Below, one piece after another: positions 6,528 to 43,443 of a DNA stretch of 64,000 nt. The notes under the pieces were generated by a model that saw only the letters and a list, made by a program, of their open reading frames with translations, was not told the DNA's origin and did no database searches. How positions within the stretch are numbered: the first letter of the stretch is position 1; each line of letters begins with the position of its first letter. Made by a program: the position numbers and the translations under genes. Origin of the DNA: Cyanidioschyzon merolae (taxonomy: Eukaryota); assembly GCA_000091205.1 (NCBI GenBank), contig AP006496.2; one strand, written 5' to 3'.

Positions 6528-7944
6528 GGTGGTCTCCGAGACGGGTAATGATCATCCTGGGGCCGCGCGCCTCACTCACAAGCGACCCTGTGGACGGGAG
6601 TTGCAGCGGGAGTCCGAACTGCCAGGACCGTGTGCACGTGGACTGCCGCAGCGCCCGCGACCAAGGCGAGCTGGCCTCTACATCAGCGATCGCTGGTGCC
6701 GTCAACAAATTGGGAACTCTCTGAGAGGTTTTGCAGGTGCCGCGCTGGCTTTGGTTGCAAAGCCCGCGACGCCTGTGCGACCTGCACACGCCACACAGGT
6801 CCAGTGGGGTCGGTGCAGCGGCCCGCCTCCACCGGAACAAGCACTTTTGATACCTTTCGCAGTCGATCTTTTGCGTATAAGATGAGAGGCCTCGGACGCA
6901 ATTGTTATCGGCGGATTCATGTTTTCGATCTGCATGCGTGGCGGCAGAAGAATATCGTCGGGGATTTGTGCGAGAATCGTCGCTGCGACGCTCTGGTTGC
7001 CGGGGATCCTCTTCAGTCTGGTGAAGAGGACGCAGACATGATGCTTTTGCAGGCGTCGTTGCGAGGCCTGCACACACACCGTAATTTTTTGACGGCATGC
7101 CCCGCGTTTTACACAGGGCTCAGGGACACTCGCCTCTGGACTTGTTGCTCGTTACGATAATGATGTTGATGATGATGATGGGGTTTTTGGGTTGCAGTCC
7201 CGCCATTTACAGAGCGGAGCATGCTCTGTACTGAATGTTTGCGGCAACTTGGGACATTCGGTTTCCGCGTATCGACACGATAAACTTTGCGTCCAAAGAA
7301 GAGATTCGGAGAGCCTTTACCTGGATGTCGTACAATGCCGAGAAATCATATCGGGGACGAACTTTGCACGACTGCAGGCATGCAGGCCGCGCAAACACTG
7401 ACAGAACCGCTCCATACGCGGTTTTATACGCGAGGTAACAGGATAGAAAGACTGAGTATTCGGTGGTAAGCTGCACGTCAGGATAAAGCTTGTGCTTCCT
7501 TGATAGATCGCTGAGCAGTTACGGTGTATGCAGGCACGACATCAGCTGCTGGATGATCTCATGCACAGCGAGCTCTGAACCATAGAGTTTAAAGAGAAAG
7601 CGCGAAACTAGCGGCGCGATGTGAATCTGTTGCTCGGGAAAGACTCTCCAACTTGCCGCCTACGGATGCACTCGTGGCTAGCTCAGCGTATTCACTGAGA
7701 GTTTAGTCACTGTAACACCAGACATAATCACGGTCCGGATGCGATCTCCAGACGCGCTCAAAATCTACGAATAAAGTCTGCAAGGAAAGATGCGCACTTT
7801 TGGAGGCGACAGCGGTGGTGATCATAAATCTTCAAGCGCTCTTGCATCCGGACATGCGCACCCGATCAAATACTCGGTAATATCGAATCATGGAACAGCA
7901 TCAGCGTCGCTGAATCCCCAGGAAAATCGTTATCACGGAATATA

Positions 7945-9906
7945 TGTGGCGTTCCAGCCTCGCTCGACAGCTGACCAGTACCATACCAGTGTCTTGGCGC
8001 AGGCGAGGATCCGAATCTTCCCCCTGTTTCCTAACGTCTTTATTGCATCCGAACTCCACAGCGTTGCAGCGCAGCGTCTGCATCAGTAAGAGTCGATTCC
8101 CTGGCAAGCTCGCTCGACGTAAAGCCGGTGGACGATCTGGAAGCACGAGATATTGCCTGAGGTTGATCGAGGGGTTCAAGTCTCGATGCAGTATGGACGG
8201 GTATGTGTGTGTACTTGCTGCTGGCGTCACGACGCAGCGAGCCTCACGCCTTTGATTGCCGCTGCATCTCATGGTCGAGCGGCTTACCGTACGCCATCTC
8301 GTGCGTCTGTCTCTGTTTCGCTCTCTGATTCTCTACCGGATTCGACACGCGCCCGTGCTCATGACACGTGTATGTCGTCCTGAACACATCGGCGGGCATC
8401 GTGCAGCGCGCATTTCTGTATTTACTTCTGTATTTCGGCATGCTCATTGCATGAGCAGGCGTCCAGCATTTCTGCGTTATAGCGCGCCCTGCTCCATGGG
8501 TTACCTATCAAAGAAAACTGAGCAGCTTCATCTGCTTCGCATTGAGGCCTTCGGCTCCGTCCCCGCGCTCTAGACGCACAGCGAAGGCCATGGCGCTATC
8601 TGACCTGGGAATCACGCGCACAGCGAAGCCTTTCCCCGCATCTAGCTTGAACAGTTGGAAATGCGTCGCGCTGCCCGAAAGGATACTTTTCGGCACCTGC
8701 GCTGTCGAGGTCCCGATCAAGGACGTGGTGCGTCGACCTTTCAAGGTATTCTGCGGACTGTGGGTGCGAGTCTCTGACCCGAAGATCAGGCCGTGTTGCG
8801 GGTTTTGTACCGGGCTTCATTCACGCTGTCCCTCGGGGCGGGTTCAGCCGTAAAAAGCGCAGAGCAATGTGGACAGCTGGCAGCCCTGCGCCCGCAACAC
8901 GTACGCATTGTTGGTGAACGAGCTGCGTCACAGCGCGCGAAACTGAGAGAGTCCTCATCGAGTGCGAAGCAACGCGACGCCAATTGGCGACCTGTATCTC
9001 GCTTTACTGAATATTCTCCCTGCTGACGTGTCTTAGCAGGGAGGCGTCGAGAGTGGTTCCGGCGTCATGCGCCCGATCCGTGAGCTTTTCCTTCCTGTCC
9101 CTGTACATCCTCTTCGTCTGAGGGATCCTCCTGCTCGTGGCGGAGCGGCCTCTTCGCCTTTGCGTCCGCTCGGCTGCGCGCGCCTTGAGCGCTTTCGAGT
9201 AAGGGGGCGCATCGTACCCAACGATCAACCCAGAAGAATGCGTGATAGAGACGCAACGGAGCGCTTCGACGGAGTATGAGGTGCTGAACGAAGCCGTCTG
9301 CTGGGCGATCACTAGGTGGCTCTGCAATGAAGTTGCCTCTGGGCCTGATGGTGTCGGAATGCTCGCTTATCTGTGCTTTGGGATCCGTCGTTCGCGCCTC
9401 GTTGGGTACCCTTGTGCGGGTCCACCATCGCTCCCGAACAAGTCCCTTTGTGGCGTAATCCGGAAACCGAGCACCTCATGTGAGAATCATTGGCGCCGCA
9501 GTGCGAAATCGATAAATTGTGTCGTTCAGCACGAAACAGTCTCCCATACAAGTGCATTCCCTTCTGTATCCGTCTGTGTCTCTTTGGTGCCGCTCGTACC
9601 GACGGTACGGCATCATCACAGTCGATGACTGCTTCCGTGGAATTCCGTATCGAAGAAATGGAGTGGCGTAAATTGACGAGGAGACACACTGATCAACACA
9701 GGGTTTGGTACCGTCCGCATTGAGTGCGAATCGTTCATCATGCAGAATACGAGTGGGTAGCTTCATCCAGCCGCTGACCCTGGACTGACTGACTTGTCCA
9801 AGTAAGGCTGTTTTCTCGTGAACTACCGGTGACAACACCTTGTGTTTCCTGTTCCTGTCTCCATTCTGCAGGATACCCTCCGTTTTCTTGAATGCGTGTG
9901 AGAGAT
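7945..9906. repeat. Direct repeat copy 1 (1962 bp); partner at 27294..29255
   Basis: Base-by-base comparison shows a constant offset of 19349 between the copies, with only a handful of substitutions over about 2 kb. Flanks diverge at 7944/27293 and after 9906/29255. Only short ORFs lie inside. Confidence 0.9.
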
Positions 9907-10279
9907 GTAGAGAAAAAGAACGTGCTGATATAGCGACTGCATACGCGATCTGCGTAGGCAGCGATGCCCTGATGCCCCTGTCCGTAAAGATCCTAAATAT
10001 CGAAGATCTAAACACACCCCTGAGGCTCTGCAGCACAGGCCAGCGGGAGAACGTGTACTCCGGTGCGCGCGGAGACTGCCAGCCAGCTGGACGCAGCGTT
10101 GTTCGCGTCCCTTAGCTGAGCACGACTAGCGGGGCTCAAAGGTCCCCTTTTCTGACGCAAGCGCTTGGGGTTGTTGCTCTGGCACCAGTGCGCATAAGGC
10201 CCTGTGCGAAGCAAGCAACACTGTTGAAGGGCGAGCAGCGAACGACGACGCATACGCGACGGTTTCGCTCAAGATACTC

Positions 10280-13200
10280 ATGTTTTTTCGACCGCCGTAT
10301 CTAGGTTCGTCCCGCATCGATGAGATTCTCGATGAAGCCGAACGTGAAGGAAGGGTTGGGGATCAGGAGCGTTCGATTTTCCATAGTTCGGATCGGCAAG
10401 CGTCTCAGGATAGGACAAGTCCGAGTGCTGGTGACGGGCGTGCGGCCTCAAGCCAGCGACAAGGCGACGTGTCTGAAGAGTCTGACGCAACGGCGTCTGG
10501 TGGAACCTCAGTCGACCCTGTACGGCAATTCCAAGCGGATGAACAGCAACAATCGCGGATTAGGCGTACAGTTCGGACGATTCTCGCGGAAGACGACCTC
10601 ATTCCGGAGTGCAAGGCCATGAACTTGCGTCTTTTCGAATATTTCTCGCAACCGACTGCGCTGCGCTCGCTCGTCCAGTTCGCAATCGGTTGTGATGATG
10701 ATGAAGAACACAAGTACGCTGGCATGGCTACGGAGGTTCTATGCTCAGATGTTGAGCGCCTCAACGAGGCCTTTATCTCAAACGTGGATGTTTTGGAATT
10801 GTTCCTGGGCTTCGTGCGCCGCAAACCACCACTCGCGGCGGATCTGGTGTCGAATTTTGCAAAGATCTTTCTCTGTATGCTCCGAGCGAAATCGGAAGAG
10901 TTGCTTTCCGCAGTCGATGAGCACAAGTCATGGTTCTTCTCGCAGGGCATTTTACAACATTTACAGCACTCTGCGCTCAGCAATTTGATTATTGAGTTGC
11001 TGATCCAGAACGAGATCGTGATCTCCCGCAAAGCCGTGCACATATACGCACAAGCTGAATTGTTGAAACGCCTCGTGGATCTGTTTGTCAATGAAACAGA
11101 ATCGCCTGACGATGAAACGCTCAGCAATGTCATGAGTATCATTGTTTCGCTCAGTGGGCGAGCGGTGCCGCTTGCCGAAGCCGCGGATATCTTCCACTCG
11201 GTTGGCGGCATACCGGATGAACTCGAGGGCGGATCCATCCTCGAGACCGCTGCAAGAGCGAATCAGCAGCACCAGCTTCGAACGGCGGCGAGCGGGCAGA
11301 CCTCGATATGCCCCGATGAGCGCGACGAGTCGAGCGCCACGGCCATGAACCAGGAACGCAAAGCGCTCAAATCTCTGGACCTTTTGCGGCAACCGGAGCT
11401 TCTCGCGCGTTTGCTGAGCGCATTTCGCCAGAGCGATGCGCACCTGCTCTATGGTCTAAGTATGCTCACGGAGCTCGTGTCTATTAATAAGGAGCTTTCT
11501 CATGAGTACGAAACAGTGCAGCACCACTGGGAACAGACGAGCTTGCGCCTATCCACAGCCAATGAACGACAAGATGCGGACACAGCGCGAGCCCCGTTGT
11601 CTTTGCCATCGTCGTCGTTGTTGCGTCCATCGTCGGAAACGACTGCATTTGCCAGCAGCGCCGAAGACAGCGACACGAGCAGCACGTCCTCAAGCGAACT
11701 GGGACGGACGCCTGCGGCCGCACACTCCATACGAAGCAAGATGGGAGAATTTGAAACCGCTTTGCAGGCGCATTTGCCGTATCTGTTGTCGCGACTCGAG
11801 GATGATGCTGAATCGGGGCATTTCGGGGTGATTCGATTGAAGCTCGTCGAGTTTTTGATTCAGATGATGCTGGATGTATCGCCGCAGCTTTGCAGCAGGC
11901 TTCTTGCGATGGGAATCCCTGCAACGCTGACTCGCTTGCTACGAGCCTACCCATGGGTCTCCGTGTTCCATCATCTCTACCATCGTGCGCTTCAGGAGAC
12001 ACTCCTTACACCCTTTCAATCATTCCTTCAAGCAGTTCAACCGGCGCTCGATGAGGCAAATCTGCAGGCTATCGCGGATGGTACCCTGATCCCCGACCGT
12101 TTACGCGCATGGTTTCTCGAGGCAAATATAGTCCAGAGTTTCGTGCAGCTCCAGCAGGTTGCGCTCAATGCGGAAAGCGGCCGCATATCACCCGAAGATA
12201 TGCGAGCGCTTGTGCGCGCTGTACCCCAACTCGAGTGTACGGATCACGCGGCTCGAGCACCGCCTTCGCGCATACGAGTGGCACTTTCCGCGCATCTCGC
12301 GGAGATGATACTGGAAATCTACGAGCAGGTGTTCGTTCCGCTCAGCAAAATGACTGCCACATGCACTTCGGGACAAGAGGACGCTGCGCTGGCAACCGGT
12401 GCCCCTGGCTGGCAACCAGCAACGACCAAAGAGGCAACGGCGGGAACAGCGACTGTCGTGCCGCTGCTCCAGCGCACGAAACGCTCGAAGGTACCGCTTC
12501 TGGCGTTCCTGTCTCCGCTTCTCGGGCTAGATGAAGAGGGCGGCACGATGCTGGCGGCTTGGGCTGCCCTCGAGGCGATTGCTACCGGTCCCGTCTATGC
12601 CGAGAAATCCAAGCAGCACCGGCAGCTGGGTGGCCGTCGACCTAGCGGTCTCTCTTCGCACAGCCTGAGTGAAGATCTCGCTCAGCTGCCGACACTCACG
12701 ACCGACAACGCCACCTCTATGGGCGAGGGCGACGACGAGGACGGTGACGTCGGCATGATAGGTGGTGTCGAAGACCGCCAGGATGTGCTCGAAGATCGCC
12801 GACGCCCGAGACTACAAGGCAGACCCCCGGATGGTGCCGTCTTCCAGGAGGACGCGAGTTCGTTCGTGGAGCAGCATGATCGAATGGATCCACTGTTCGA
12901 GGATATGGACGAGGATCGCGATGAATATTTACCGGCACCACCGTTCATAGATAACGAACAGCAGCAAGCATCCTGCGGCGCCAAGGATGCGGGAACAGGG
13001 CCGAGTTCGGCACCGGAACTCAGCGTCGATGACATGATGACGGGTCTCAGCGAAGGCGAGCAGGAGTCGCTCACGCACTTCACGGATTATCTGTCACAGC
13101 GCGCACGACGAACACCGGCAAACAGCAATCAAAGTGGAGAGCGCTCTCAGCGAAAAGATGCTCGGGATAATCAAGAATACTCCGTAACGTCCGCCGGGGC

Positions 13201-13366
13201 GCTCGACCTCCCCACCGCAGCGTCTCGCAGTGGCGCTGTCGAACGCGAGTCAGCATCGCAACCAGCGCCTAGGAACGCATCCCAATTGAATGCCTTCAGG
13301 CAGAGTGAAGCACCCGATAACGACTGGGTTGCATTTGCTGATGATCAACACGAATCTGGCGACTGA
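10280..13366 (+). CDS. SAPS-domain protein (Sit4/PP6 phosphatase regulatory subunit family)
   Basis: ILAEDDLIPECKAMNLRLFEYFSQPTALRSLVQFAI...DDEEHKYAGMATEVLCSDVERLNEAF aligns with human PP6R [36 protein letters not shown]...[25 protein letters not shown]. The N-terminus MFFRPP...SSRIDEIL resembles MFWKF...SSHIDTLL. ATG start verified. The C-terminal acidic tail is low-complexity. Confidence 0.8.
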   Translation: MFFRPPYLGSSRIDEILDEAEREGRVGDQERSIFHSSDRQASQDRTSPSAGDGRAASSQRQGDVSEESDATASGGTSVDPVRQFQADEQQQSRIRRTVRTILAEDDLIPECKAMNLRLFEYFSQPTALRSLVQFAIGCDDDEEHKYAGMATEVLCSDVERLNEAFISNVDVLELFLGFVRRKPPLAADLVSNFAKIFLCMLRAKSEELLSAVDEHKSWFFSQGILQHLQHSALSNLIIELLIQNEIVISRKAVHIYAQAELLKRLVDLFVNETESPDDETLSNVMSIIVSLSGRAVPLAEAADIFHSVGGIPDELEGGSILETAARANQQHQLRTAASGQTSICPDERDESSATAMNQERKALKSLDLLRQPELLARLLSAFRQSDAHLLYGLSMLTELVSINKELSHEYETVQHHWEQTSLRLSTANERQDADTARAPLSLPSSSLLRPSSETTAFASSAEDSDTSSTSSSELGRTPAAAHSIRSKMGEFETALQAHLPYLLSRLEDDAESGHFGVIRLKLVEFLIQMMLDVSPQLCSRLLAMGIPATLTRLLRAYPWVSVFHHLYHRALQETLLTPFQSFLQAVQPALDEANLQAIADGTLIPDRLRAWFLEANIVQSFVQLQQVALNAESGRISPEDMRALVRAVPQLECTDHAARAPPSRIRVALSAHLAEMILEIYEQVFVPLSKMTATCTSGQEDAALATGAPGWQPATTKEATAGTATVVPLLQRTKRSKVPLLAFLSPLLGLDEEGGTMLAAWAALEAIATGPVYAEKSKQHRQLGGRRPSGLSSHSLSEDLAQLPTLTTDNATSMGEGDDEDGDVGMIGGVEDRQDVLEDRRRPRLQGRPPDGAVFQEDASSFVEQHDRMDPLFEDMDEDRDEYLPAPPFIDNEQQQASCGAKDAGTGPSSAPELSVDDMMTGLSEGEQESLTHFTDYLSQRARRTPANSNQSGERSQRKDARDNQEYSVTSAGALDLPTAASRSGAVERESASQPAPRNASQLNAFRQSEAPDNDWVAFADDQHESGD

Positions 13367-14065
13367 TGAGTTTGGTCATAGTCCGTGCCGCGTTGCACCA
13401 GCCGGTGTTTCTCGTTGCACTGTGAACGCAATGGCTTGCTGCGCTTGAGCTTGAGCTTTCGCTGACGACGTTGCGGACGCTGCTCCACATCTAGAATCGC
13501 TTCTAGCGCCATGGAAAATACGATACGTTGTTCCTCTGGGGTAAACGTACTCCTTCTGACTGCAGCGCCGGTAGCAACATAGCCTCTGCCCAGAGGCAAG
13601 CCTGCTGCACCCGAGCTCCCGGTCAACAGCCACTGCAAAAGCGGTTCCAGCAGCAGCGGCGGCGGCAGCAGCCGTCATCGTTGTTGCCATGATTCGAGTA
13701 GCCGTCGATGGGACTCACGGAGCGCGGAAACGTTTGTGTGAAGGCGGCGGTGGAGTCCCGGGCGCCCCGCAGCATCTGCGTCTCTTCGAGTGCCTCGATC
13801 GATGCGTCTACCCGGTTCCATAGAAGCGAACGAAAGCGTCCTAGCGCCGTTGGCAAAGGCTGCCACCATCCACTTGTGCTTTACGTTATCTGTGCTCTTA
13901 GTATCGAACCAGTATGCGTGGTTGCCTCCGAACACCGGCAACCAGCGTCCGAACGCAACTGCTCGGTGCTAGGTTGCAACAAACGGGGGCCACCAAAGCA
14001 CCCGTACCAATCGGTACGGCAGCGGACCCCAACGGATACCGCCCTGCGTTTTGCTGGTGCCGCTC

Positions 14066-15340
14066 ATGTTCCTTCACGTGACGCGCTGCAGTTCTTTTCA
14101 AGAACGAGACTATGTCCGATCAACAAGGAATCAGTGCCAGACACCAGGATTTCTTTCGAGTCGCCGTCGCTTTCGGTCGGCGAAAAGGTTTGACCTGCAG
14201 TCCGCGACGACTGGGTTTGCGGAAGGCACCAGGCAGGCGGTAGCCATCCTCGGTGCGGCCGGGTATACGGGTTCGGAGCTCGTGCGCTTGCTTCTCAGGC
14301 ATCCGCACGTTGAGATCAAGGCTCTGAGCGGCACGGAACGTACCAGAGGGCGTCCCTACGGTCAGGTTTATCCGCAATACGCGTTCGAGAGCATCATTTC
14401 TGCGAACGGGAAGCAGGGACCTTCCCCAGTGCGCTCGTTGCCGCCGCTGTGTTTAACGGAGGAGGTTGATTTCAGTCAAGTGGACACTGTTTTCTGTTGT
14501 TTGCCGCATGCGACAACGCAGTCCATCGTCACAAGCATTCTCCAGAGCGCTGTCGGGCGTACCCCACGCGTCATTGACCTCTCGGCAGACTTTCGCTTAG
14601 CGGACGTGCACACATACGCCCACTGGTACGGAACGCCGCATCGGGCACCAGATCTTCAAGCTGAAGCAGTTTATGGTCTCACTGAGTTTGCCCGAGCTGA
14701 TATCAGGAGCGCGCGCTTGGTGGCCAACCCTGGCTGCTACCCAACGGGTGCCCAGCTGGCGCTGGTCCCGCTCATTCGCGCCCAGCTTATCGCGCTTGAC
14801 GACGTGATAATCGACGCCAAGTCTGGAGTGACTGGAGCAGGTCGCTCGGCAAAGGAAGCCAATTTATTCTGTGAAGTGACGGAGGGTATGCACGCGTATG
14901 CAGTGGCGAACCATCGTCACGCTCCCGAGATCGAACAGGGCCTCAGTCGGGCAGCGGGACTCGGGAACAGCGGTGTGGTGGTCAACTTCACCCCACATCT
15001 GGTGCCTATGGCACGCGGCATTCTTGAAACGATCTACGTGAGATGTCAGGCCGGAGTGACACCGGGCGACTTGCGCGCATGTCTCGAACAGGCGTACGGC
15101 GAGGAGAAGTTCGTGCATGTGCTTGCAGATCCACAGCAGGTTCCTCAGACGCGCTATGTGCGCGGAAGCAACCACGTCGTGATGAATGTCTTTCCGGATC
15201 GGTTACAAGGGCGAGCGATTCTAGTCGTTGCCTTTGATAACATCGTGAAGGGTGCCAGCGGTCAAGCAGTGCAGAATATGAACGTGATGATGGGTATACC
15301 GGAACACACGGCTTTGGAGCAGGGCCCGCTCTTTCCCTAA
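14066..15340 (+). CDS. argC: N-acetyl-gamma-glutamyl-phosphate reductase (stand-alone ArgC) with an N-terminal targeting-like presequence
   Basis: Motifs AVAILGAAGYTGSELVRLL (NAD-binding), ANPGCYPT (catalytic Cys), DAKSGVTGAGR and NIVKGASGQAVQNMN are present. The ORF-track start at 14051 is TTG; the first ATG is at 14066. About 60 aa of R/S-rich presequence precede the Rossmann motif. Confidence 0.9.
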   Translation: MFLHVTRCSSFQERDYVRSTRNQCQTPGFLSSRRRFRSAKRFDLQSATTGFAEGTRQAVAILGAAGYTGSELVRLLLRHPHVEIKALSGTERTRGRPYGQVYPQYAFESIISANGKQGPSPVRSLPPLCLTEEVDFSQVDTVFCCLPHATTQSIVTSILQSAVGRTPRVIDLSADFRLADVHTYAHWYGTPHRAPDLQAEAVYGLTEFARADIRSARLVANPGCYPTGAQLALVPLIRAQLIALDDVIIDAKSGVTGAGRSAKEANLFCEVTEGMHAYAVANHRHAPEIEQGLSRAAGLGNSGVVVNFTPHLVPMARGILETIYVRCQAGVTPGDLRACLEQAYGEEKFVHVLADPQQVPQTRYVRGSNHVVMNVFPDRLQGRAILVVAFDNIVKGASGQAVQNMNVMMGIPEHTALEQGPLFP

Positions 15341-17489
15341 CGCTGTTCGATCGACCACGGGATGATTCCTCCTTGGATTTGGGTAAGGGTTTTAGGAATC
15401 ATGGAGCGCGTGCAGGGCGCCTGTCGCAATCGCAGCTAGCTGGTATGCATTCCGTGCTTTCTGGCGAGCTTGCGCTTGCACCTGCACGGTGCAGTCCATT
15501 AGGAGATGCCACTGCTGCCGAGCGGCCGCCTTTCCGTGCGAAAGCAATGAAATAGACGTGATTGTGGACCGCATGGAGAGGGTGAATGTTCTTTCCCTTG
15601 ACGTTGTCTCCCGGGAAGCAGCATGTCTGTGTGGATGTCCGGATCGCGTCACCGCAGCTGCCACTGCAGCCGTTCGTTTTTAAAACCGAATGCTGGACTG
15701 TCTGTTCTTTTTCTGCCTTTCGATTCTATTCCGAACTTGGTTTCGATCTGCAGCCTCGTCATTCCAAGTGCAGCAGTATGGGCTTGTGGATCCATACGTG
15801 GTTTTAGGATTCTCGGTCGTTGTTTTGGAGTGGCTCCTTGGCGGCTTTGGCACCGGAGTTGGTTCCGTCACCGTTTTCAAGATGATTCGTGACACCCTTC
15901 GACAAGGCTTCGTTGAATACATGATACCATCATCCAATTCATACGCACAAGCCTCCGCGCGTCTCTTGTATTCAATTCTAGCGTGCTCACATCACGAATG
16001 CGTCGTATGTTCAAGGTTTCTGGTCCACCACTGCGATTTCTGAGGTCAGCCATTTGTGCCGCTGCATGGGGAACGATAAGAACTCGATATCGTGCCTTGG
16101 CGAGTCGTTCCTAAGCAAATACCAGAAGCTCACGGATGTTCTCGTACCAGATGATAATCGATTCGGGTGAAAAGACAAATCTCCACCGCTTGAGGCCATC
16201 GACGCTGCGGCATTGAACAGCCGAAGTATACTAGCGCTCTCGGAATACGCTCCCATATGCTTCTGGCATTCCTGTTTGCATCGGAAAGGGTCTTGGACTT
16301 GGATTTCAGTTCGCCCAGCAATCGCTGCTAGGGCAATTCACGTCACCGCTTTGTACGAAGAGAGCGTTGACGGATCGGAATTTCTCGACTAGTTCTTCCT
16401 CTTTGATGCTCCACTCGGTACTTGTTTCATCATGGACAACATCGCGTTCCATGAATCCTTTACTGGATGAAACAGTGCGCGTTTGCGCGTGTCGCGAACA
16501 AAGTACTCACCAGCGGGCTTGCTCTGCTGAGGCCCGTGATCGTGAGATACGCCACGGGGCACGGTAACGAAGGAGGGTACCGCGTTGAGCCCTCTGCGCC
16601 CGCCAGGAGCATGTACTGGACAATGAAGCGAGCGTTTACGCGCCACTAGCCGGCCTCGGATGTAGAGGAGGAGAAGGAGGAGGAATTTTGGTGCCTGCAT
16701 GGGAACAAACGCACCACAGCAATGCGTAACCGCTGCATAATTCGCACCGAGGCTCTATCCGAGGAAGATGAGATTGGCAAGCGAAGCGTGGATCGCAACA
16801 TCTGCCTTTCCATGAAATGTGTCGACAGCAGCCTGAAGTAGCGAAATCAGGATCTTAAAGTTGCCATCAACATGCTTCTGCAGCTGGCAACAGTGCTGGA
16901 CCAAAAGGTTTGACCAGCATACCTGACGCCAGAAATAAGAGAGAGGCGGTGGAAGCAGCCTCAGAAAATCCCGCCACGATTCGTGTTGAAGATAGTGGCA
17001 AGCGTGACCAACCTATATGGTCTACTTCAGGAGTAGAAGACCCGTTCCGTTTTCTTCTGGAATGGGTGTCTAAAGATTCTGAGTGTATTCTGCGAGAGCA
17101 TGGTCTGCTATGAGCGCGATGCTGCAGCGCGACATGCGCATTCTTCCAAAATCAGTGTCGGGCAGATCACGGGCGCATCACTGGTATTGCTATCAGGGGC
17201 TGGAGCATGTGGCCACTAGCGGGCACTCTTTTCGCTCACGCTTCAATCATTTGGCCCGGACTCTCTCACATGGTACCTCCCTGCTGGCAGCACGACACCG
17301 GGATGGCGTATGAGATGAAATGCAATGTGTTGCTGGCGAAGCGCACGACCTGCAGAGCCTCGCAGCTGCGCTTGAGCCTTATATCATCTAGAACGCAGTC
17401 TTTTGCGCGCAGATTTTCCCCTGAAAGGCAAAGTACTGCCAGATTGACGCTGCATTCATGTGGCGCCCTCGTCAGCTCAGCCTTGCGAG

Positions 17490-20741: not shown

Positions 20742-23708
20742 TTCAATGGAAAGGGAACGTGCTTGCCCAGAGTTTACCGAGCAGCCACGGAGACTCACGT
20801 TGCAGGCGAAAGGAGAGAAGCGAACCGATCCGCCCCGGGAATTTGAATCCGCGCAGCGCGATCGCTCGCCAGCGGCGGTATGATGGCGGCCTCATTCGCG
20901 TGCATGATAGGATGTACCACAACGGCCAGTATACCCGGGAGGGAGTATGGGTTATGGAGCTTGGACCTAGGTGTAACGATGGGTGCTTTACCGTACACCG
21001 ATATGAAACGTGCAATCGGTGAGCGCTGGTCTGCGCGTAAACGTTTCGTCAAAGAAGATAATCGGGTGGTTTCGTTCGCCTGTGTCTATGGTCATCGATG
21101 CTGTTGACACCGCAATATACGGAGCGCCGGAGGAAAGCATCGCAGCATATCAAAACTCTTGGATGGGCTAACTGGATCCCGGCATTTCCACTGAGATTCC
21201 CAGAATACGACGCTCGGACAAGGCGGAAGAACGCGGTGCGTCGCGCGTTCGTGCTCGTTTCAGGAGCGCATGATGCATAAACTCCATTTCGAAAAAACGT
21301 ACGCTGCGACCCGCATAGGTCCGTAGGTTCTGTGCGGAATTCAAGCTTTCATTCACGTTCTATCACAATACAGTTGAAACTGCGCCCAGCCGCGGTCTCG
21401 AAGCAGCCATCAATGCTGTTTGCGCGCACCATCTCGGGGCAAGCCTTGCTGGATGTGCGTTTTCAGCATGTTTCGAGGCGTCTCGCGCGACAGCGGCCAT
21501 GCTTTCGTGTGCAGGAGCGCTTCCATCTATCGCGCGGGTTGCCGGTCTTAGAAGGACGCGCATTGCGTTGCGGAGGCATGCCATCGGCTTGTCCAGACAT
21601 GCCTCGGGAACGAGACGCTCGTCGTGCACAGTATCGCTGCCGCCGTGCAGAGGTGACCCTGTTCATTAGCGGTGTCACCATGGCTCTGGGGCCGAATACC
21701 GGATGCAGCACTTTCCTCCATCTATCCATCCGAACGTCCGTCCGACCATTGATCTGCTGCCTTGTGTGCCAGTAGATGTAGACGACGTACGTAGACCAGC
21801 GAGCCGCTTGCTGCAGATCTATATCCTGGTGTCTGGTTCTATGGATGCGGAACGTCGCCAAGCTGTCCGGATCGGTCACGGAATCCGCCAAAGCCTACGT
21901 CGTGCGCCCCGAACATGCTCGTCTCTGTTCAACGGTACAGAAGCGGGATGTCCCGGGTCGTTACCTAGAGACATGATGCGTGTTCGGAGCGCATCATTCC
22001 CTGATCCGAGGTCCCTGTCAGACGCGTCTGCGATTCACATTCACCGGAAGAAGCCATCATCCATGTCACAAGGCTCACGATTGTACTCCATTATGGAATC
22101 GAAGCTCGTCGCTTCCGAGACTCGCAAACGAGGGATTGTACTGCGCGTCAAGCTTCCAGCTTACGGCAAATGTCATTATTCATTGGAGACCCAGCGAGGC
22201 AGGCCCACAAACCTATGTTACCTGGACGCCAACTCGCGACGCTGTCGTCTCGATGCACGCCTTGTAACGTCCTGGGATTTCAGGCGCACACACGAGAGAT
22301 ACCCGACTGCCCGCGTGCATCATCCGATACGGAGCGCGCACCAGCTGAGCGTTTTGATGAATTATGTCCAAAGGCTGTAGTTTATTTCCCACGAATACAG
22401 TGAGACAAGAGAGCGTAACAAAAGAGGAATCATGCGTTGTGCTCTCGATCTCCCTATCATTCAGAGCCGAGGAACGCTACGAGGTGTCCTCATGTCCGTG
22501 ATCATTTCGGGGCGGGAAAGCGAGGATGAATCACGACCGGATCCTCCGAATGCGCGAAAACCGTCAATTGCCTGTTGATGAAACTTTCTCGATGATGCGT
22601 CAACTGTGGGGTCGCGGGAAACGGGGTATACCTCGAGGCGACACTTCGTGGGGCACGGCGAATCTGTTTTGGACCTTTAGGGCATCGGCACGGTCGCATG
22701 GTGGATCAATTTGTTTATTCTTATCTGGGGAGGTGTTCTGGAGTCGCTCGTACGCGACAGCGTCTCTAGTGGAACAGAAATCTTGTTCTGGCTACGGGCA
22801 GCTTACACTGCTGTCAGAAGCATCTGATTTCATGCATGGATCCCTACGATGCGAAAAAGAACAGAGATCAACGAGTGATTAGCAACTCGAGAACAGCTTC
22901 TTCCCGGCTTCACGGTGAGCGTTGAAAGGGAAAAAAGTTTTCCGTAATTTCGAAAGTGTATCGTGTTGGTGGAATTTGGCGCGAACCGGATGAGTCCGTC
23001 AGGCCAGAGCTCGCTGTGCCTCTAAGGTGCCGGGCCAGTAGCGAGTTCTGAGCAGCTCGTCCGCAACGCAGTTTATTCTGCGACTAGGGGCAGTTAAGCT
23101 GCGTCTGGGCGTCGCCCATGTTGCAATTATCTCCTAGCATATCGCTTCGCTCTGTCGCAGGCGGCAGGTCTGCTTACCCATTTTTCAGGCTCCCAGAATG
23201 CTTACATAATCCGATTCCGTACCTGGTGAAGCGGCCCGCAATCCGATGCCCTCAGCAGTATGGCAAAGCGTTCTTGTCCCCGTGCTGCATCCGCATCAGC
23301 GGTTTAGGCGCAATCGCGGATGCAGCAAGACAGGCACTCGCAACACAATGGAACATTCAAAACGGCAAGTGCATCCAGGCAGAGGCAAGGGCCATGGAAC
23401 TTGGACGTAGAGTGCATCATGGTGGACGCTTTCCCGAATACCAGTTTCCAATCCGCAGGCGAGGATCCCCGATCAACAGAAACGTTTTATCAAACGAAGA
23501 AAAAGATGCGTTGCACGTCGATACCCGAAAAGGGGCATCGCACGCCTGATGATGCAGCGTCGGCGCCGCCGCTGCCGCCGCTGCCGCCACTGCCCCAAAC
23601 GTACACCCATCCCAGCAAGGTGTCTAGTGACACCTGCTTCGTTTACGAAACAGCAATAGCACCGTTTGCGCTGGCACCGCACTCTAGAGACCGTACGTTG
23701 CTCCGGCT

Positions 23709-24326
23709 ATGAGTGAGAGAGAGAGTCCCGCAGATGCTGGGCCCGAGAAATCCGTGCACCCGCTTCAGTTTTCCTGGACGTTTTGGTATGATATGCCCCG
23801 GGGAATCAAGCCTTCCCAGGAGAACTGGAGCAACAACGTCAAGCCGTTTGCCGAGGTCGACACGGTGGAAAAGTTCTGGGCCGTCATGAATAATATCGTG
23901 GAACCGTCTCGGCTTCCGCCTGGTTCCAACCTGCACGTTTTCAAGCACGGAATCAGGCCTGAGTGGGAAGACGCCATGAACGAGGCCGGGGGCAAGTGGG
24001 TAGTCACCCTGCCAAAGAAGGAGCTCCCCCGAATCGATGAGTTCTGGCTGAACTCGCTCATTGGGATTCTGGGAGAACACTTTGAAGCGAAGGCGAGTGA
24101 TGACATTTGTGGGCTCGTGGTGAGTGTTCGCAAAGACAGAGGCCGACTGGCGCTTTGGAACAAGAGCGCTTTACGGGAGGACTTGCGGCGTTCTATTGGA
24201 AAAAGGTGGCGCGAAATCCTGTCTAGTGGCGGACTGCCGCGCGATCTTGATCTTGAATACATGGTACACAAGGACGCTATGGCGTATGATCGCTCGTATG
24301 TGAGTAAGGCGCTCGATCGCCTCTGA
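23709..24326 (+). CDS. EIF4E: Eukaryotic translation initiation factor 4E (cap-binding protein)
   Basis: HPLQFSWTFWYD, FKHGIRPEWEDAMN (cap-stacking W/E) and GGKWVV match the eIF4E cap-binding signature along its 205 aa. ATG start verified. Confidence 0.9.
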   Translation: MSERESPADAGPEKSVHPLQFSWTFWYDMPRGIKPSQENWSNNVKPFAEVDTVEKFWAVMNNIVEPSRLPPGSNLHVFKHGIRPEWEDAMNEAGGKWVVTLPKKELPRIDEFWLNSLIGILGEHFEAKASDDICGLVVSVRKDRGRLALWNKSALREDLRRSIGKRWREILSSGGLPRDLDLEYMVHKDAMAYDRSYVSKALDRL

Positions 24327-26300
24327 AACCTTGGCGCTGGGAGCGAGCTGTGGTGCGACTGCCAGCACCAACGGGTACGCGTGCGACACCTGGACTCGGC
24401 TTTGGAAACGATCACCGCACGCTGCGTGTAACGTCGTCGGCAAAGCCGTTTTCCCTGCGTCTAGCATGAGCCGGCGAAACGGAAATCGGGCACCGGTGTA
24501 GCGGGTCCAGGAAACGAACCCAACGACAGCATCCGGGGCAGCGGAGGCGGCTTCCACTGGCCAGTCGCGTCGTGAAAGCACTCTGCCGGTGCTGGACGCG
24601 GGAACGGGCATTGCAGCTCGATATCAACGCACGTTGAAACACATGTGCCGATATGCTGCTGGTGCGACTCGGAATGTGCGTTTCCATTCTGGTGCGGCAG
24701 CAAGATCCCTGTAAGAGGCGTAAGTTTGGCGAAGCGCCTTTCGTGACCGCTTCTCTCTGCTTTACGGTGCGGCTTTCGTCGCAAATGGGGTCCAACGGAA
24801 TCAGAGATCAAAAAGAGGCTCGGTTTGCACCAGAGTGTTTCGCCAGCACTTTCGGACGATGAAAATCTCTGAGCGCTGCGGATATTGGCAGCAAAGCCTT
24901 CACTGATGGGAGCGTTTCGGTGGCGCTTCGAGAGTATTTGCATGATTGCGTGCGCTGTTTTGGTGTATCGTGATTGTTTCAAGTCATTTCAAAAGCTATC
25001 CGGATTCTGACTTGAGCTGTACACATGCTTTACTAAATGTGAGCCTCGGTTCCACTGGCCAGTACCGACTGTAAGACTTGGAGTAACCTGCTTTGCGCCT
25101 TGTGAAGAAAACTGTAAACGCCCATCCAGCTCGTCTTGAAGAGCGAACGCGCACGCCTTTGTTGCGTTTCATGCACGCCCCAGCGCGTACTGGAAGCGCC
25201 CGAGACACAGCGCAGTCGTGCCGAGTTTATGTCCAGAGCTGGCATCTAACCTATGTACACTGCTAGGCATGAGACGCGATCGCGTTCCAGACGGAAGCGA
25301 GTGCATTCGAATCGGTCCCTGTTCATGATGCGGTTCGGCGCCCAAGCACAAAGTGCGACGCGCATTGATGGACGCTCACCACAACCAGGGCGCCACGGCT
25401 TTCCCTCGTTGCTGTCGCAAGATGCCGCATGTTATCCCGTCAGCAAGCGAGCCGGGCATCCAAACTTCTTCGCGCACCCGTCTCCATCCCATAAATAAGG
25501 ACTTGCTGCTTACGAAGATCTACACCCTCGATAGTACACTGCATAGGAAACATATGGCAGCTTCGCGTGGCCTTGCGCGGTGCCAACACGCGCACATGAC
25601 GTGTGGAAACGATGGACCGCAACGCCAGGGCGCAGATGCGAACAGCCTCGAGTCGATGCCCATACAGGTAAGACGACGCTGTGCAGTCATCATGTGGCGC
25701 TGGCGCCGGCCTTGCTGGCGCCGTCGTGGGCGCTCACCGCAGGCACTAGGCACCCGGAGGATCGCATGAATGCGCATGTAATTCCGAAGGCAGGCACATC
25801 CACTGCTGACCGATGGAACTCGAACGTGTCGCGCGGCATGGAAGACGCTCTCCCCGATACCGATAGCAATCGCGCTATCGGGCACGTCAGGTTCGTTGAA
25901 CGATTCTGTAGCCAAAAAGGGGTGATAAGCACAACGGGTCGAGCACGCACACATTCCCGTTCTTCCATCGTATTGAATGCGTTCCTGAGTGCCGCCACGC
26001 TGCGCAGACCTGCCCTCATGACCCTGAAACAACAATATCATGGATAAGCTGTCGATCCTCGATGAGTCCGTGAGGCAGCGTGCAGCGAGGCGCCTCCGAC
26101 GGACCCCGTCCAGGCGCGAAACTGCGGCACGCGCAACGTCCGTTCGCTGCTCAGCGTGTCGCCTGCCGGGAGCCTCTCTGCAGACAGGGCCTATCGCGGC
26201 CATTCACGGGATCATCCCGAGTTCCAGATGCCCGCCAGCAGTACCGAGAGGGTTTCCATTCATGACTGAACAGAAGGGGCATCGGAGGTGGCGGCAGGCC

Positions 26301-26816
26301 TCAGTGATGGCGGCCGTTTCGTGCGAGATGCTCCGCGGGACTCGATCGCAGGCTCGCACCTCGCTCCGCCTCGTACTCCCCGTAAAACGTGACCACATTC
26401 TTCTCAGTCTCCCAGAGACGAATTCTGTACAGCAATAATCCAAGGTGTGGCTCAAGCCAACCCCAAATGACCGCAGCGAGGTTCTCAGTCGTTGCCGGTA
26501 GAGCGTGCGCATAACCGCCGTTTTCTGAAGCAAACTCATTTACATCCTCGTCAATCGACGCATGATCGAGCTTCTCGAGCACATGTTTCTCGATTACTTC
26601 CTTCAATAGACGCATGTCGAGCACCATACCGGTCTGAGCATCGACTGGACCTCGAACCGTAACCTCCAGAACATAGTTGTGTCCGTGGCGTCGTGCGCAC
26701 GGCCCAAACAGCCTCTCGTTTTCTTCCGGACTAAGCTTGCCCGCTCTCAGCGCATGACATGCGGAAAACGTCACAGCGCGTGTTAACTCCACAACCGGCC
26801 TCTGGATATGAACCAT
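26301..26816 (-). CDS. PTS: 6-pyruvoyl-tetrahydropterin synthase (PTPS)
   Basis: FSACHALRAGKLSPEENERLFGPCARRHGHNYVLEVTVRGPVDAQTGMVLDMRLLKEVIEKHVLEKLDHASIDEDV aligns with mammalian PTPS [32 protein letters not shown]...[32 protein letters not shown]. The zinc-ligand histidines and catalytic Cys are conserved. The CDS is started at the ATG for MVHIQRP (cat at 26814-26816), because the ORF-track N-terminal extension to 27098 does not resemble PTPS. Confidence 0.8.
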   Translation of the reverse strand: MVHIQRPVVELTRAVTFSACHALRAGKLSPEENERLFGPCARRHGHNYVLEVTVRGPVDAQTGMVLDMRLLKEVIEKHVLEKLDHASIDEDVNEFASENGGYAHALPATTENLAAVIWGWLEPHLGLLLYRIRLWETEKNVVTFYGEYEAERGASLRSSPAEHLARNGRHH

Positions 26817-27293
26817 TGGTCTCGAGCGACTCTGGAGCGAGAGCGCCCACCTGCAACGGATACAAAGCTCGCGAACGGTTTCGTGACGCTGCCCGATCAA
26901 TCTCCCGAAAATCGCGCCAAAAGAGGAGCCTGCGCAGTAGCGCCAGGCACCGTTTCTGGAGGACTGGCATTGAGGCATCGAACTGGTATCATCCGGTAGC
27001 AGTATTTTCGGGACCAGGGCCAAGACGATTGTGGCTCTCAAAACGTGTCTATGTGACGCTGATCCCGGTCCAGTGTTCACTGCAGGGCTAGCACACACAA
27101 CGAACCAGCGTCTTGCTGGTTGTAGCGTGTGTTGCAGGCGCTCGCGAAGGTGCTGGATGCGCAGCCTCCGCCGCCGCGAGGCTACTCTATGGTACCAGCA
27201 CGGAGCTGCGCCTGTCCGTACTCAGGGATATTGAACCTTGGAACGTCAATATACTTTCTTGATGGCATGGGAAGATCGTATGTGGTGTCGGCC

Positions 27294-29255
27294 TGTGGCG
27301 TTCCAGCCTCGCTCGACAGCTGACCAGTACCATACCAGTGTCTTGGCGCAGGCGAGGATCCGAATCTTCCCCCTGTTTCCTAATGTCTTTATTGCATCCG
27401 AACTCCACAGCGTTGCAGCGCAGCGTCTGCATCAGTAAGAGTCGATTCCCTGGCAAGCTCGCTCGACGTAAAGCCGGTGGACGATCTGGAAGCACGAGAT
27501 ATTGCCTGAGGTTGATCGAGGGGTTCAAGTCTCGATGCAGTATGGACGGGTATGTGTGTGTACTTGCTGCTGGCGTCACGACGAAGCGAGCCTCACGCCT
27601 TTGATTGCCGCTGCATCTCATGGTCGAGCGGCTTACCGTACGCCATCTCGTGCGTCTGCCTCAGTTTCGCTCTCTGATTCTCTACCGGATTCGACACGCG
27701 CCCGTGCTCATGACACGTGTATGTCGTCCTGAACACATCGGCGGGCATCGTGCAGCGCGCATTTCTGTATTTACTTCTGTATTTCGGCATGCTCATTGCA
27801 TGAGCAGGCGTCCAGCATTTCTGCGTTATAGCGCGCCCTGCTCCATGGGTTACCTATCAAAGAAAACTGAGCAGCTTCATCTGCTTCGCATTGAGGCCTT
27901 CGGCTCCGTCCCCGCGCTCTAGACGCACAGCGAAGGCCATGGCGCTATCTGACCTGGGAATCACGCGCACAGCGAAGCCTTTCCCCGCATCTAGCTTGAA
28001 CAGTTGGAAATGCGTCGCGCTGCCCGAAAGGATACTTTTCGGCACCTGCGCTGTCGAGGTCCCGATCAAGGACGTGGTGCGTCGACCTTTCAAGGTATTC
28101 TGCGGACTGTGGGTGCGAGTCTCTGACCCGAAGATCAGGCCGTGTTGCGGGTTTTGTACCGGGCTTCATTCACGCTGTCCCTCGGGGCGGGTTCAGCCGT
28201 AAAAAGCGCAGAGCAATGTGGACAGCTGGCAGCCCTGCGCCCGCAACACGTACGCATTGTTGGTGAACGAGCTGCGTCACAGCGCGCGAAACTGAGAGAG
28301 TCCTCATCGAGTGCGAAGCAACGCGACGCCAATTGGCGACCTGTATCTCGCTTTACTGAATATTCTCCCTGCTGACGTGTCTTAGCAGGGAGGCGTCGAG
28401 AGTGGTTCCGGCGTCATGCGCCCGATCCGTGAGCTTTTCCTTCCTGTCCCTGTACATCCTCTTCGTCTGAGGGATCCTCCTGCTCGTGGCGGAGCGGCCT
28501 CTTCGCCTTTGCGTCCGCTCGGCTGCGCGCGCCTTGAGCGCTTTCGAGTAAGGGGGCGCATCGTACCCAACGATCAACCCAGAAGAATGCGTGATAGAGA
28601 CGCAACGGAGCGCTTCGACGGAGTATGAGGTGCTGAACGAAGCCGTCTGCTGGGCGATCACTAGGTGGCTCTGCAATGAAGTTGCCTCTGGGCCTGATGG
28701 TGTCGGAATGCTCGCTTATCTGTGCTTTGGGATCCGTCGTTCGCGCCTCGTTGGGTACCCTTGTGCGGGTCCACCATCGCTCCCGAACAAGTCCCTTTGT
28801 GGCGTAATCCGGAAACCGAGCACCTCATGTGAGAATCATTGGCGCCGCAGTGCGAAATCGATAAATTGTGTCGTTCAGCACGAAACAGTCTCCCATACAA
28901 GTGCATTCCCTTCTGTATCCGTCTGTGTCTCTTTGGTGCCGCTCGTACAGACGGTACGGCATCATCACAGTCGATGACTGCTTCCGTGGAATTCCGTATC
29001 GAAGAAATGGAGTGGCGTAAATTGACGAGGAGACACACTGATCAACACAGGGTTTGGTACCGTCCGCATTGAGTGCGAATCGTTCATCATGCAGAATACG
29101 AGTGGGTAGCTTCATCCAGCCGCTGACCCTGGACTGACTGACTTGTCCAAGTAAGGCTGTTTTCTCGTGAACTACCGGTGACAACACCTTGTGTTTCCTG
29201 TTCCTGTCTCCATTCTGCAGGATACCTTCCGTTTTCTTGAATGCGTGTGAGAGAT
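27294..29255. repeat. Direct repeat copy 2 (1962 bp); partner at 7945..9906
   Basis: Same offset-19349 comparison as for copy 1. Sampled differences include ctaacg>ctaatg, gtctgtctctg>gtctgcctcag and taccgacgg>tacagacgg. Confidence 0.9.
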
Positions 29256-43137: not shown

Positions 43138-43443
43138 GTATGGCTCCATCATAACCCTGGACCCCCGGGTGTGCGTGTGCTATCAATAACCATCGGGAGA
43201 CCGCAGTTCCATTTTAGACGTCGCCAGGTGCTGCTCATCCTGGAACCGTGTTCAGCTCAATACCAGCGAGCAAGTCGATGGAGCGATCGCCCTTGGCGTA
43301 CGTTTTCGCTGGCGAGGGCGTTGCAGATGCGCCTCTCGCTGGCCAGCCTGCGGAGATGCAACATTTTTGTAATCGTAGTAGGTAGCGGGTCTGGGAAGTG
43401 GTACCAGGACGGCTCGTTTCTCTTGACTAGACGCGCATGGCTC

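Follow-up and report, generated by a model that had tools for sequence, protein, structure and literature searches.

Arrangement of the repeat pair and the enclosed genes

The window (a stretch of 64,000 nucleotides of the Cyanidioschyzon merolae genome, contig AP006496.2) contains two copies of a non-coding repeat unit, U, in direct orientation. Copy 1 (7945..9906, + strand) occupies the spacer between a Pex14-like and a SAPS-like gene, and copy 2 (27294..29255, + strand) lies between PTPS and a Rad51-like gene. Repeat finding, self-BLAST and global alignment give the same result: the copies are 1962 bp each and differ by 6 substitutions and no indels (99.69% identity, 99.7% when rounded), which slightly exceeds the ‘about 99%’ of an earlier note on this DNA. 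In copy 1 coordinates, the substitutions are at 8035, 8235, 8310, 8314, 9600 and 9878. The copies start 19,349 bp apart, and an interval of 17,387 bp (9907..27293, no strand assigned) lies between them. The earlier description of sharp boundaries and unrelated flanks holds for the left edge, which is sharp and beyond which the flanks match at random level only, and is in part wrong for the right edge. There, a diverged A-rich patch of 13-14 nt is followed by a common ACGTGCTG (together 9907..9927, + strand) and then by unrelated sequence; weak homology between the copies thus continues to 9927/29277, which is the true right end of the duplication. All four junctions, i.e., both flanks of both copies, were found again in metagenomes of related strains that had been assembled independently, and the repeat is therefore not an assembly artefact.

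The interval between the copies carries five genes: one for a 1028-aa conserved protein (10280..13366, +), ArgC (N-acetyl-gamma-glutamyl-phosphate reductase, 424 aa; 14066..15340, +), an FH2 formin (17490..20741, -), eIF4E (205 aa; 23709..24326, +) and PTPS (171 aa in the gene calls of related contigs; 26301..26816, -). The five-gene block that had been described from the sequence is confirmed. ArgC, the formin and PTPS have clear Pfam matches, and PF01652 is present in proteins identical to the eIF4E product; the first gene, called ‘SAPS’, has only a sub-threshold Pfam match (E 0.0016) and an orthologue in Cyanidiococcus L003. A longer PTPS open reading frame with a GTG start, reaching 27098, is probably not real. 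A 45-bp tandem repeat within the formin gene, at 19700-19799, is polymorphic. The order of the five genes is the same in Cyanidiococcus, and they are presumably essential.

The landscape around the repeat pair is one of older interspersed repeat families. In particular, the stretch that follows copy 2 (29256-31718), earlier characterized as gene-poor and low in GC, does have a lower GC content than the window (53.4% versus 56.8%), and it consists mostly of F2 (29444..30807, +; 58-63% identity), a diverged member of an older interspersed family, F. Family F has four members in the window, where the unit has no diverged copy. The ends of F members are discrete and reproducible, as those of a mobile unit would be, and the F1 insertion accounts exactly for the difference in length of the ArgC-formin spacer (2149-1416=733 versus 719). 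An inverted repeat pair is also present in the window; when its open reading frame was compared with WSV486, only its own cluster was recovered. RNA folding of a conserved element at 31383-31489 was no better than that of shuffled sequences.

Content and termini of the repeat unit

The unit is non-coding. Its longest open reading frame is at most 186 aa, and a search of all six frames against Pfam gave no match at E<=1, which bears out the earlier statement that it contains no long ORF. The best-scoring frame is an orphan whose sole match in a HMMER search of 1.84 billion proteins was its own strain variant. Codon-usage scores of the unit's frames are those of background, and substitutions fall at the three positions modulo 3 in a ratio of 7/5/7, i.e., with no codon periodicity. 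A hidden gene or pseudogene was rejected on these grounds. A word-indexed protein search with the concatenated six-frame translation gave no matches, although its sensitivity is doubtful, as it also missed metagenomic ORF calls made on the unit. Scans of viral contigs gave no matches either. A known RNA was likewise rejected, as a permissive local scan found no Rfam match in the unit; the whole-window Rfam scan at ‘gathering’ thresholds was unreliable, as a tRNA scoring 60.5 bits escaped it and came to light in a subsequent local scan. No homology to the unit was found in Cyanidiococcus or elsewhere in the window. Its divergence between strains, 1.07-1.33%, matches the upper end of what intergenic DNA shows, as expected of an unconstrained sequence.

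The termini of the unit were searched for the marks of known mobile elements. No terminal inverted repeats were detected (inverted matches of 12-22 nt are all internal), and LTRs, terminal poly(A) tracts and hairpins are absent from the unit ends, as are repeats within the unit. The unit begins with TGTGG and finishes with GAGAT, rather than TG..CA. The outer flanks of the pair, AATATA and AAAAAC, are unrelated and contain no common target duplication; a 5-bp direct repeat, ATATA, brackets copy 1, whereas copy 2 and the third copy described below have no such duplication. Several element classes were thus discarded. An LTR retrotransposon does not fit an interior made of host genes in Cyanidiococcus order and ends other than TG..CA; the earlier conclusion that the structure is not an intact LTR retrotransposon is borne out by the same five syntenic genes and termini and by the lack of internal repeats. 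Composite transposons, MITEs and Helitrons were rejected on anatomy. A non-LTR retroposon or processed retrocopy was rejected since the A-rich patch precedes the shared ACGTGCTG and is not terminal, no reverse transcriptase is encoded, and no end is common to the three copies.

A third copy and the comparison across strains

The earlier picture of a bracket formed by two copies has to be given up, because a third, shorter copy (c3) exists at another locus. In related strains (loci L035-L040), c3 adjoins the Dcc1 gene, which lies outside the window. Its homology at near-identity is limited to a 1742-bp core, corresponding to 8060..9801 (+) of copy 1, with 98.5-98.7% identity, and to 27409..29150 (+) of copy 2. 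Beyond 9801, identity to c3 drops abruptly to about 50-70% while the homology stays collinear. Such a collapse of identity inside collinear old homology indicates the end of a conversion tract. Moreover, the collinear homology of copy 2 and c3 passes the boundary of the copy 1/copy 2 repeat by 49 nt and enters the private flank of copy 2: a patch at 29204..29304 (+) matches the right flank of c3 over 106 nt at a collinear offset (69.8%, E 1.8e-9). This patch, outside the conversion tract, is a mark of how old the family is. Past the boundary, flank identities are 72% between copy 2 and c3, 54% between copies 1 and 2, and 40% between copy 1 and c3, and the right flank of copy 1 lacks the old homology common to the other two. 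This asymmetry argues that copy 2 is parental to copy 1. The termini accordingly differ among the copies; the start of c3 corresponds to 8060, not to 7945, and homology between copy 2 and c3 extends beyond the point at which copy 1 ends.

A k-mer scan of JGI metagenomes found the left-edge 24-mer of the unit in two contexts only, both of them the window copies; this k-mer covers only the leftmost 115 nt, a part that c3 lacks, so the scan is blind to c3 and the reading of ‘two copies only’ that it invited is wrong. Within the window and the metagenome contigs searched, the unit is known from at least three loci, and its family may have further members. The earlier note had named dozens of genomic copies with typical transposon ends as a finding that would speak against its reading; nothing of this kind was seen in these searches, and the three loci have no such ends.

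Comparison with related isolates, which the earlier note had proposed, showed that all related strains sampled from metagenomes carry the two copies at the positions that they occupy in the window. The flanks of the compared strains diverge by 0.5-0.9%. The presence of both junction pairs in strains diverged to this extent, together with Logan contigs that carry the 10D ArgC allele and begin exactly k-1 bases inside the right boundary, indicates that the duplication predates the divergence of the strains. The unit itself diverges by 1.0-1.8% between strains, compared with 0.3% between the window copies. In particular, the two window copies (W1 and W2) differ at 6 sites, whereas 21-26 sites separate them from strain M and 19-26 from the contigs of L030 and the S group; within the window, paralogues are thus about four times more alike than orthologues, a comparison in which the window is the only phased sequence and the other strains are represented by short-read metagenome contigs, in which the inner part of each repeat is probably a collapsed unitig. 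Over 9083-9906, copy 1 of L001, which is anchored, differs from W1 at 15 sites, while W1 and W2 differ at 2. Eight to nine alleles are common to both window copies and occur in no other strain (8757, 8783, 8785, 9086, 9139, 9207, 9323, 9324 and, with some doubt, 8542). A tally showed that these alleles are mostly A/T, and no signal of GC-biased conversion was found. Polymorphisms across strains are spread along the whole unit. Differences between the two copies of strain M are confined to the 91 nt next to the edge, and this contig also breaks off about 80 nt inside the other repeat of the window. The sequence evidence thus establishes concerted evolution in the window lineage and in c3, but not separately in each strain. 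At the syntenic locus of Cyanidiococcus, neither copy is detectable; its spacers measure 2142 and 695 bp, compared with 4324 and 4621 bp in the window, and both copies look inserted.

Probable ectopic gene conversion and alternative explanations

These observations are probably best explained by an old, low-copy, dispersed family of non-coding repeats whose near-identity is maintained by ectopic gene conversion, in which copy 2 gave rise to copy 1. An ancient relationship would link copy 2 to the Dcc1-side copy, and copy 1 would be a secondary, DNA-level duplicate of 27294-29277 that inserted into the Pex14-like/SAPS-like spacer; the flank homologies suggest this direction. The copies would then have overwritten one another repeatedly by non-allelic gene conversion, and their near-identity would not reflect youth. 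Conversion of this kind is to be expected given the very efficient homologous recombination of the alga. Several features of concerted evolution were found at the locus: copies longer than 1 kb with very high identity at distinct loci, sites shared by diverged strains, paralogues closer than orthologues, and a tract end. Of the two origins that had been offered for the high identity, recent duplication or ongoing gene conversion, the latter is upheld by the presence of both copies in all strains and by the roughly fourfold closeness of the paralogues, and the former is not. A crossover or single-strand annealing between the copies could delete the interval or release it as a 19.35-kb circle, which is plausible on mechanistic grounds in a recombination-proficient organism; indeed, intrachromosomal recombination between direct repeats has led to the loss of a cassette in Cz. 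merolae 10D and in Cyanidiococcus (PMC13353863). Such products would presumably be lethal in the haploid phase and be purged, leaving only non-crossover conversion visible.

The alternative that retains most weight, although it is unlikely, is a recent insertion of a non-autonomous mobile element at each of the sites, the high identity then reflecting recent transposition. It would account for the lack of a detectable copy at the syntenic Cyanidiococcus sites, where the spacers are shorter by roughly the length of a unit, for the ATATA repeat flanking copy 1 and for the presence of the sequence at three or more loci; the neighbouring family F, with its discrete ends and the F1 insertion that explains the ArgC-formin spacer, would also agree with it. 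However, the unit has no TIRs, LTRs, terminal poly(A) or hairpins and encodes no transposase, reverse transcriptase or other domain in any frame, its three copies lack common termini, and copy 2 lacks a target-site duplication. Moreover, both copies are fixed in the sampled strains yet closer to each other than orthologues are, and in the JGI metagenomes the left-edge 24-mer, which sees only the part that c3 lacks, has just two contexts.

It is improbable that the unit is a functional non-coding locus (an lncRNA gene, a shared promoter or an insulator) kept identical by selection, and it probably has no function. Retention of multiple copies in all strains and the position of the unit in promoter-side spacers would agree with a function, as would the reported transcription of C. 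merolae interspersed repeats (Nozaki et al. 2007, PMC1955436), and such a locus might also mark the limits of the five-gene block or act as a site of programmed excision or amplification. Nevertheless, the unit diverges between strains as much as or more than other intergenic DNA, with polymorphisms along its full length; it has no Rfam match, it is not conserved in Cyanidiococcus, and conversion explains the identity without selection.

There is a similarly small chance that the copies are breakpoints of chromosomal rearrangements that segregate in wild C. merolae, or that they form a module for regulated excision or amplification of the ArgC-eIF4E block. Strains 10D and MS1 reportedly differ by a reciprocal translocation and an inversion (PMC13353863), and contigs of one metagenome series link the left flank of copy 1 to the sequence right of c3, and the Dcc1-side flank to the sequence right of copy 2. 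These linkages match what an ectopic crossover would produce; an arbitrary choice of path by a short-read assembler is likelier, because the repeat has almost no copy-specific variants.

A single recent segmental duplication in the window lineage, without gene conversion, is strongly disfavoured. It would fit the 99.7% identity and the sharp boundaries, but copies with the same boundaries occur in strains whose divergence (0.5-0.9% in the flanks, 1.0-1.8% in the unit) exceeds the 0.3% between the window copies, and c3 is a mosaic of 98.5% identity and old homology at about 70%. False duplication or homogenisation of the segment during assembly is hardly credible: short-read polishing can over-homogenise repeats of this size, but the four junctions recur in several metagenome and SRA assemblies, and the six differences, reported to lie throughout the unit and more than 140 nt from its edges, indicate that the copies were resolved separately.

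Ectopic conversion among a few dispersed copies is a clean example of an ordinary genome feature and is conceptually nothing new. C. merolae is presented as the simplest of the photosynthetic eukaryotes, nearly free of redundancy and highly efficient in homologous recombination; at this locus, the few kilobase-scale repeats of the alga prove to be real, common to wild strains and, as the comparison of paralogues suggests, actively homogenised between loci. Such repeats can mislead short-read assembly (as in the contig breaks and ambiguous joins seen here), SNP calling and the design of gene targeting. The locus also provides a natural, phased test case for the lengths of ectopic conversion tracts, and it could help to ask whether the inversions and translocations that have been reported among strains arose through repeats of this kind.

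Two direct repeats of about 2 kb resemble the LTR pair of a retrotransposon; unlike such a pair, they enclose syntenic host genes and have no gag/pol, no TG..CA ends and no common target-site duplication, and C. merolae is reported to be without LTR elements (PMC1955436). A ‘novel interspersed repetitive element’ of C. merolae has been described in 253 copies, dispersed over all chromosomes, with a mean length of 3.2 kb, making up about 5% of the genome; it is transcribed and has a truncated ORF weakly similar to WSV486 of WSSV (Nozaki et al. 2007, PMC1955436). The unit, found in the same organism, is likewise intergenic, dispersed and devoid of transposon hallmarks, and copy 2 together with the adjacent family F member measures about 3.5 kb, near the mean size of that element. 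In contrast to it, the unit was found at three loci in the window and the metagenome contigs searched, and no ORF with a homologue was detected in it.

In Leishmania, direct and inverted repeats are said to drive extrachromosomal circular and linear gene amplification (Ubeda et al. 2014). The present locus is similar in having kilobase-long, non-coding direct repeats around housekeeping genes in a compact protist genome, with an inverted pair in the same window; unlike those of Leishmania, the repeats of C. merolae are few rather than thousands, and adaptive amplification is not known for this alga. Low-copy repeats that undergo interlocus gene conversion are substrates of non-allelic homologous recombination (NAHR), as exemplified by human CMT1A-REP and by dispersed repeats of yeast. 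The unit differs from repeats of the CMT1A-REP type in its length of 2 kb, its wholly non-coding content and its setting in a gene-dense, largely haploid genome of 16.5 Mb. It resembles low-copy repeats in that its copies are direct and kilobase-long, paralogues are more similar than orthologues, identity drops abruptly at a tract end, and deletion or circle formation between the copies is predicted.

Extent, content and surroundings of the repeat pair

Self-comparison of the window recovered one long direct repeat, at 7945-9906 (copy 1) and 27294-29255 (copy 2), which bears out the description in the earlier note of two copies about 99% identical. In a global alignment with flanks, the identity is 99.7%, with six substitutions (8035, 8235, 8310, 8314, 9600 and 9878) and no indels across 1962 aligned bases. 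The left edge is abrupt. At the right edge lies an A-rich patch of 13-14 nt that is unlike between the copies, followed by ACGTGCTG, common to both, and then by no relatedness; thus, ACGTGCTG beyond the patch extends a faint homology to 9927/29277.

The unit contains no ORF longer than 186 aa, its codon-usage scores are at background, and its GC content of 56.1% matches that of the window as a whole. The Pfam search of its six-frame segments gave no match at E<=1, a permissive local Rfam scan gave none in the unit, and a full HMMER scan against 1.84 billion proteins retrieved, for its best-scoring ORF, nothing but a strain variant of that ORF. The unit lacks terminal inverted repeats, LTR-like ends and internal repeats, and unit-like sequence was found neither elsewhere in the window nor in the syntenic loci of two other species, tblastx included.

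The copies are separated by 17,387 bp. Of the five gene labels proposed for this interval, ArgC, FH2 formin and PTPS are confirmed by Pfam and eIF4E by identity to proteins with PF01652, while "SAPS" rests on a sub-threshold hit; the Rad51-like gene directly past copy 2 is also Pfam-confirmed. The nearest named relative of the ArgC protein among the search output is that of Cyanidiococcus yangmingshanensis (79% identity), and the window ArgC shares a 90% cluster with the C. merolae 10D protein, from which it nevertheless differs, pointing to a C. merolae-like strain other than 10D as the source of the window. At the syntenic Cyanidiococcus locus (L003), the order is as in the window (Pex14-like, a 1009-aa gene, ArgC, formin, IF4E, PTPS, Rad51-like), which argues that the bracketed interior is ordinary conserved host DNA and not a transposon body. 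Three ORFs of 206-227 aa, at 6478-7098 (minus strand), 21703-22380 (plus) and 25520-26203 (minus), are annotated on related contigs by metagenome gene callers; they have no Pfam match, their codon-usage scores are negative and they are uncalled at the Cyanidiococcus locus, and their status as genes is doubtful. The formin gene carries a perfect 45-bp tandem repeat of 2.2 copies at 19700-19799 (minus strand) that is polymorphic among strains, one unit being missing in L008, L009, L016, L017 and L020 (1068 aa vs 1083 aa).

Two further non-coding elements were observed. Downstream of the Rad51-like gene, 31383-31489 is 79.6% identical to 19239-19345 of the Cyanidiococcus locus; some 60 nt at its core hardly vary, and it is better conserved than most coding sequence of the region. 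It matches nothing in Rfam, and its folding energy is no better than that of shuffles. ARAGORN predicts a tRNA-Val(AAC) at 59868-59942 (minus strand), which scores 60.5 bits against RF00005 in a local scan. Not even this tRNA was picked up by the whole-window Rfam "gathering" scan, which came back empty and whose negatives are therefore unreliable.

A third copy and the probable polarity of the pair

The HMMER match P0136 led to ten more contigs carrying the unit. In six of them, a flank with a Dcc1 gene adjoins the left end of the unit sequence at unit position 8060, and in eight, a flank termed X adjoins its right end at 9801; neither flank was found in the window. Contigs flanked in this way place the unit at three or more loci in related strains. 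The core common to the window copies and this third copy (c3) measures 1742 bp, at 98.5-98.7% identity. In metagenomes, the k-mer 7966-7989 occurs in two contexts only, a count that is valid solely for the left 115 nt of the unit because the k-mer lies outside the c3 core. Flank pairings vary among contigs L035-L044 (JGI 33000503xx/36xx): Dcc1 with X, Dcc1 with the right flank of copy 2, and the left flank of copy 1 with X. These mixed joins reflect either arbitrary path choice through a repeat nearly devoid of copy-specific variants or real recombinant arrangements.

Beyond the core, positions 53-158 of flank X align with 29204-29304, collinear and at the same offset, at about 70% identity (E 1.8e-9). 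Over 60 columns past the boundary of copies 1 and 2, copy 2 and c3 agree at 72%, and the comparisons with copy 1 drop to 54% and 40%. Judged from these alignments, copy 2 and c3 appear to be old relatives, the core of which was recently overwritten, with a conversion-tract end at 9801. Since copy 2 sequence continues across the boundary, copy 1 would be the secondary copy of copy 2's segment. Right after the tract end, at 9802-9870 and 29151-29219, an intron-like pattern starts with GTAAGG and reaches TTCTGCAG 69 nt on; it is probably fortuitous, the genome having about 30 introns.

Copy 1 sits between two ATATA pentamers, a weak observation that could reflect either target duplication or microhomology. 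A mobile origin with recent insertion would account for the former; the unit has neither the ends nor the coding content described for such elements, and this origin is considered unlikely, though it is compatible with conversion as the upkeep process.

Probable concerted evolution of the window copies, seen against related strains

Many related-strain contigs (metagenome and SRA), 98.9-99.6% identical to the window, were fetched by exact-protein look-up. On the Pex14-like side they end 149-305 nt inside copy 1, on the SAPS-like side they begin within its final 27-823 nt, on the PTPS side they end 80-325 nt inside copy 2, and on the Rad51-like side a single contig ends 132 nt inside copy 2. 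Two Logan contigs, one of them from a sample with the 10D ArgC allele, start exactly k-1 bases within the right boundary. Whole copies are traversed by one 50-kb JGI contig (strain M; L008, L016) and one 4.6-kb contig (L030). No empty-site allele was found among the sampled strain contigs. Contig ends from all four sides indicate that all four junctions are real and that every sampled strain carries the repeat.

The window copies differ from each other at 6 sites, and each differs from those of strain M at 21-26 and from the L030 and S-group contigs at 19-26. Over 9083-9906, copy 1 anchored in strain L001 differs from window copy 1 at 15 sites, against 2 between window copies 1 and 2. At 8-9 positions (8757, 8783, 8785, 9086, 9139, 9207, 9323 and 9324, and 8542 save in one contig), both window copies share an allele present in no other sampled sequence. 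As paralogues are four-fold closer than orthologues and the duplication is older than the strain split, alleles must have been copied between loci. Proper phasing applies to the window lineage only: in strain M, all differences between the two copies lie no more than 91 nt from the edge, and the contig that carries them is broken some 80 nt inside the window's other repeat, so that metagenome copy interiors are probably one unitig emitted twice.

Homologous recombination is highly efficient in C. merolae, markers have been shown to be lost in 10D and Cyanidiococcus when direct repeats on one chromosome recombine, and the species, whose strains are 0.6-0.7% apart, has a sexual cycle (PMC13353863). 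Interaction between kilobase repeats at a distance of 17 kb is thus to be expected. Outcomes without crossover would homogenise copies 1 and 2, which is the pattern seen; crossover or annealing between them would delete ArgC, eIF4E, formin and PTPS, and haploids with this loss would presumably be eliminated. The unit is therefore probably a low-copy dispersed repeat homogenised by ectopic gene conversion. The earlier note, which had cautiously offered recent duplication or gene conversion and a substrate for unequal crossing-over, was largely right, and the feature is real.

A functional non-coding module under selection would also keep copies alike; however, the unit diverges between the window and strain M by 1.07-1.33%, against 0.55% overall in the flanks (coding 0-0.6%, intergenic 0.14-1.3%), and is not conserved, which leaves this explanation quite improbable. 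One recent duplication would explain the near-identity of the pair and is very hard to reconcile with its presence in every sampled strain. An assembly artefact, to which a repeat of this size might give rise, is scarcely credible given the four junctions.

Older repeats of the intergenic landscape

Low-stringency self-comparison of the window revealed an older interspersed family (F) with reproducible ends, lengths of about 1.15-1.4 kb and 58-63% identity among members: F1 (15680-17095), F2 (29444-30807, beginning 190 bp past copy 2), F3 (41990-43143) and F4 (53790-54963). The "gene-poor, lower-GC" stretch reported after copy 2 is mostly F2. The second near-identical pair in the window consists of inverted arms at 41990-43137 and 53790-54937 (1148 nt, 99.4%), which coincide exactly with full-length F3 and F4 and enclose 10.6 kb of genes; the pair is a potential inversion substrate. 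No terminal inverted repeat or target-site duplication was found at these arms, and their ORF of 327-335 aa has background codon usage, no Pfam match and, in the protein database, no relatives outside its own 90% cluster.

The ArgC-formin spacer is 1.4 kb longer than in Cyanidiococcus, and F1 explains the excess almost exactly (2149-1416 = 733 bp vs 719 bp). After subtraction of repeat modules, the Pex14-like/SAPS-like spacer retains 4324-1984 = 2340 bp (2142 bp in Cyanidiococcus) and the PTPS/Rad51-like spacer 4621-1984-1364 = 1273 bp (695 bp). From these lengths, much of the lineage's extra intergenic DNA appears to consist of such modules. Diverged modules were also observed at 36783-37273 and 52985-53473 (inverted, 69%) and at 38006-38231, which is 72.6% identical to the right flank of L035 and represents a module also adjoining c3, outside the window. 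An exact 40-nt direct repeat occupies 62399-62438 and 62513-62552, at a spacing of 114 nt.

Nozaki et al. (PMC1955436) reported from C. merolae a transcribed interspersed element of 3.2 kb, present in 253 copies and bearing a truncated ORF that resembles WSV486, along with an absence of LTR elements and a scarcity of transposons; family F may be this element or part of it. Interspersed repeats of this genome are thus already known, and low-copy dispersed repeats with ectopic gene conversion form a known class, of which the repeat pair is a neat, well-resolved example and no surprise.
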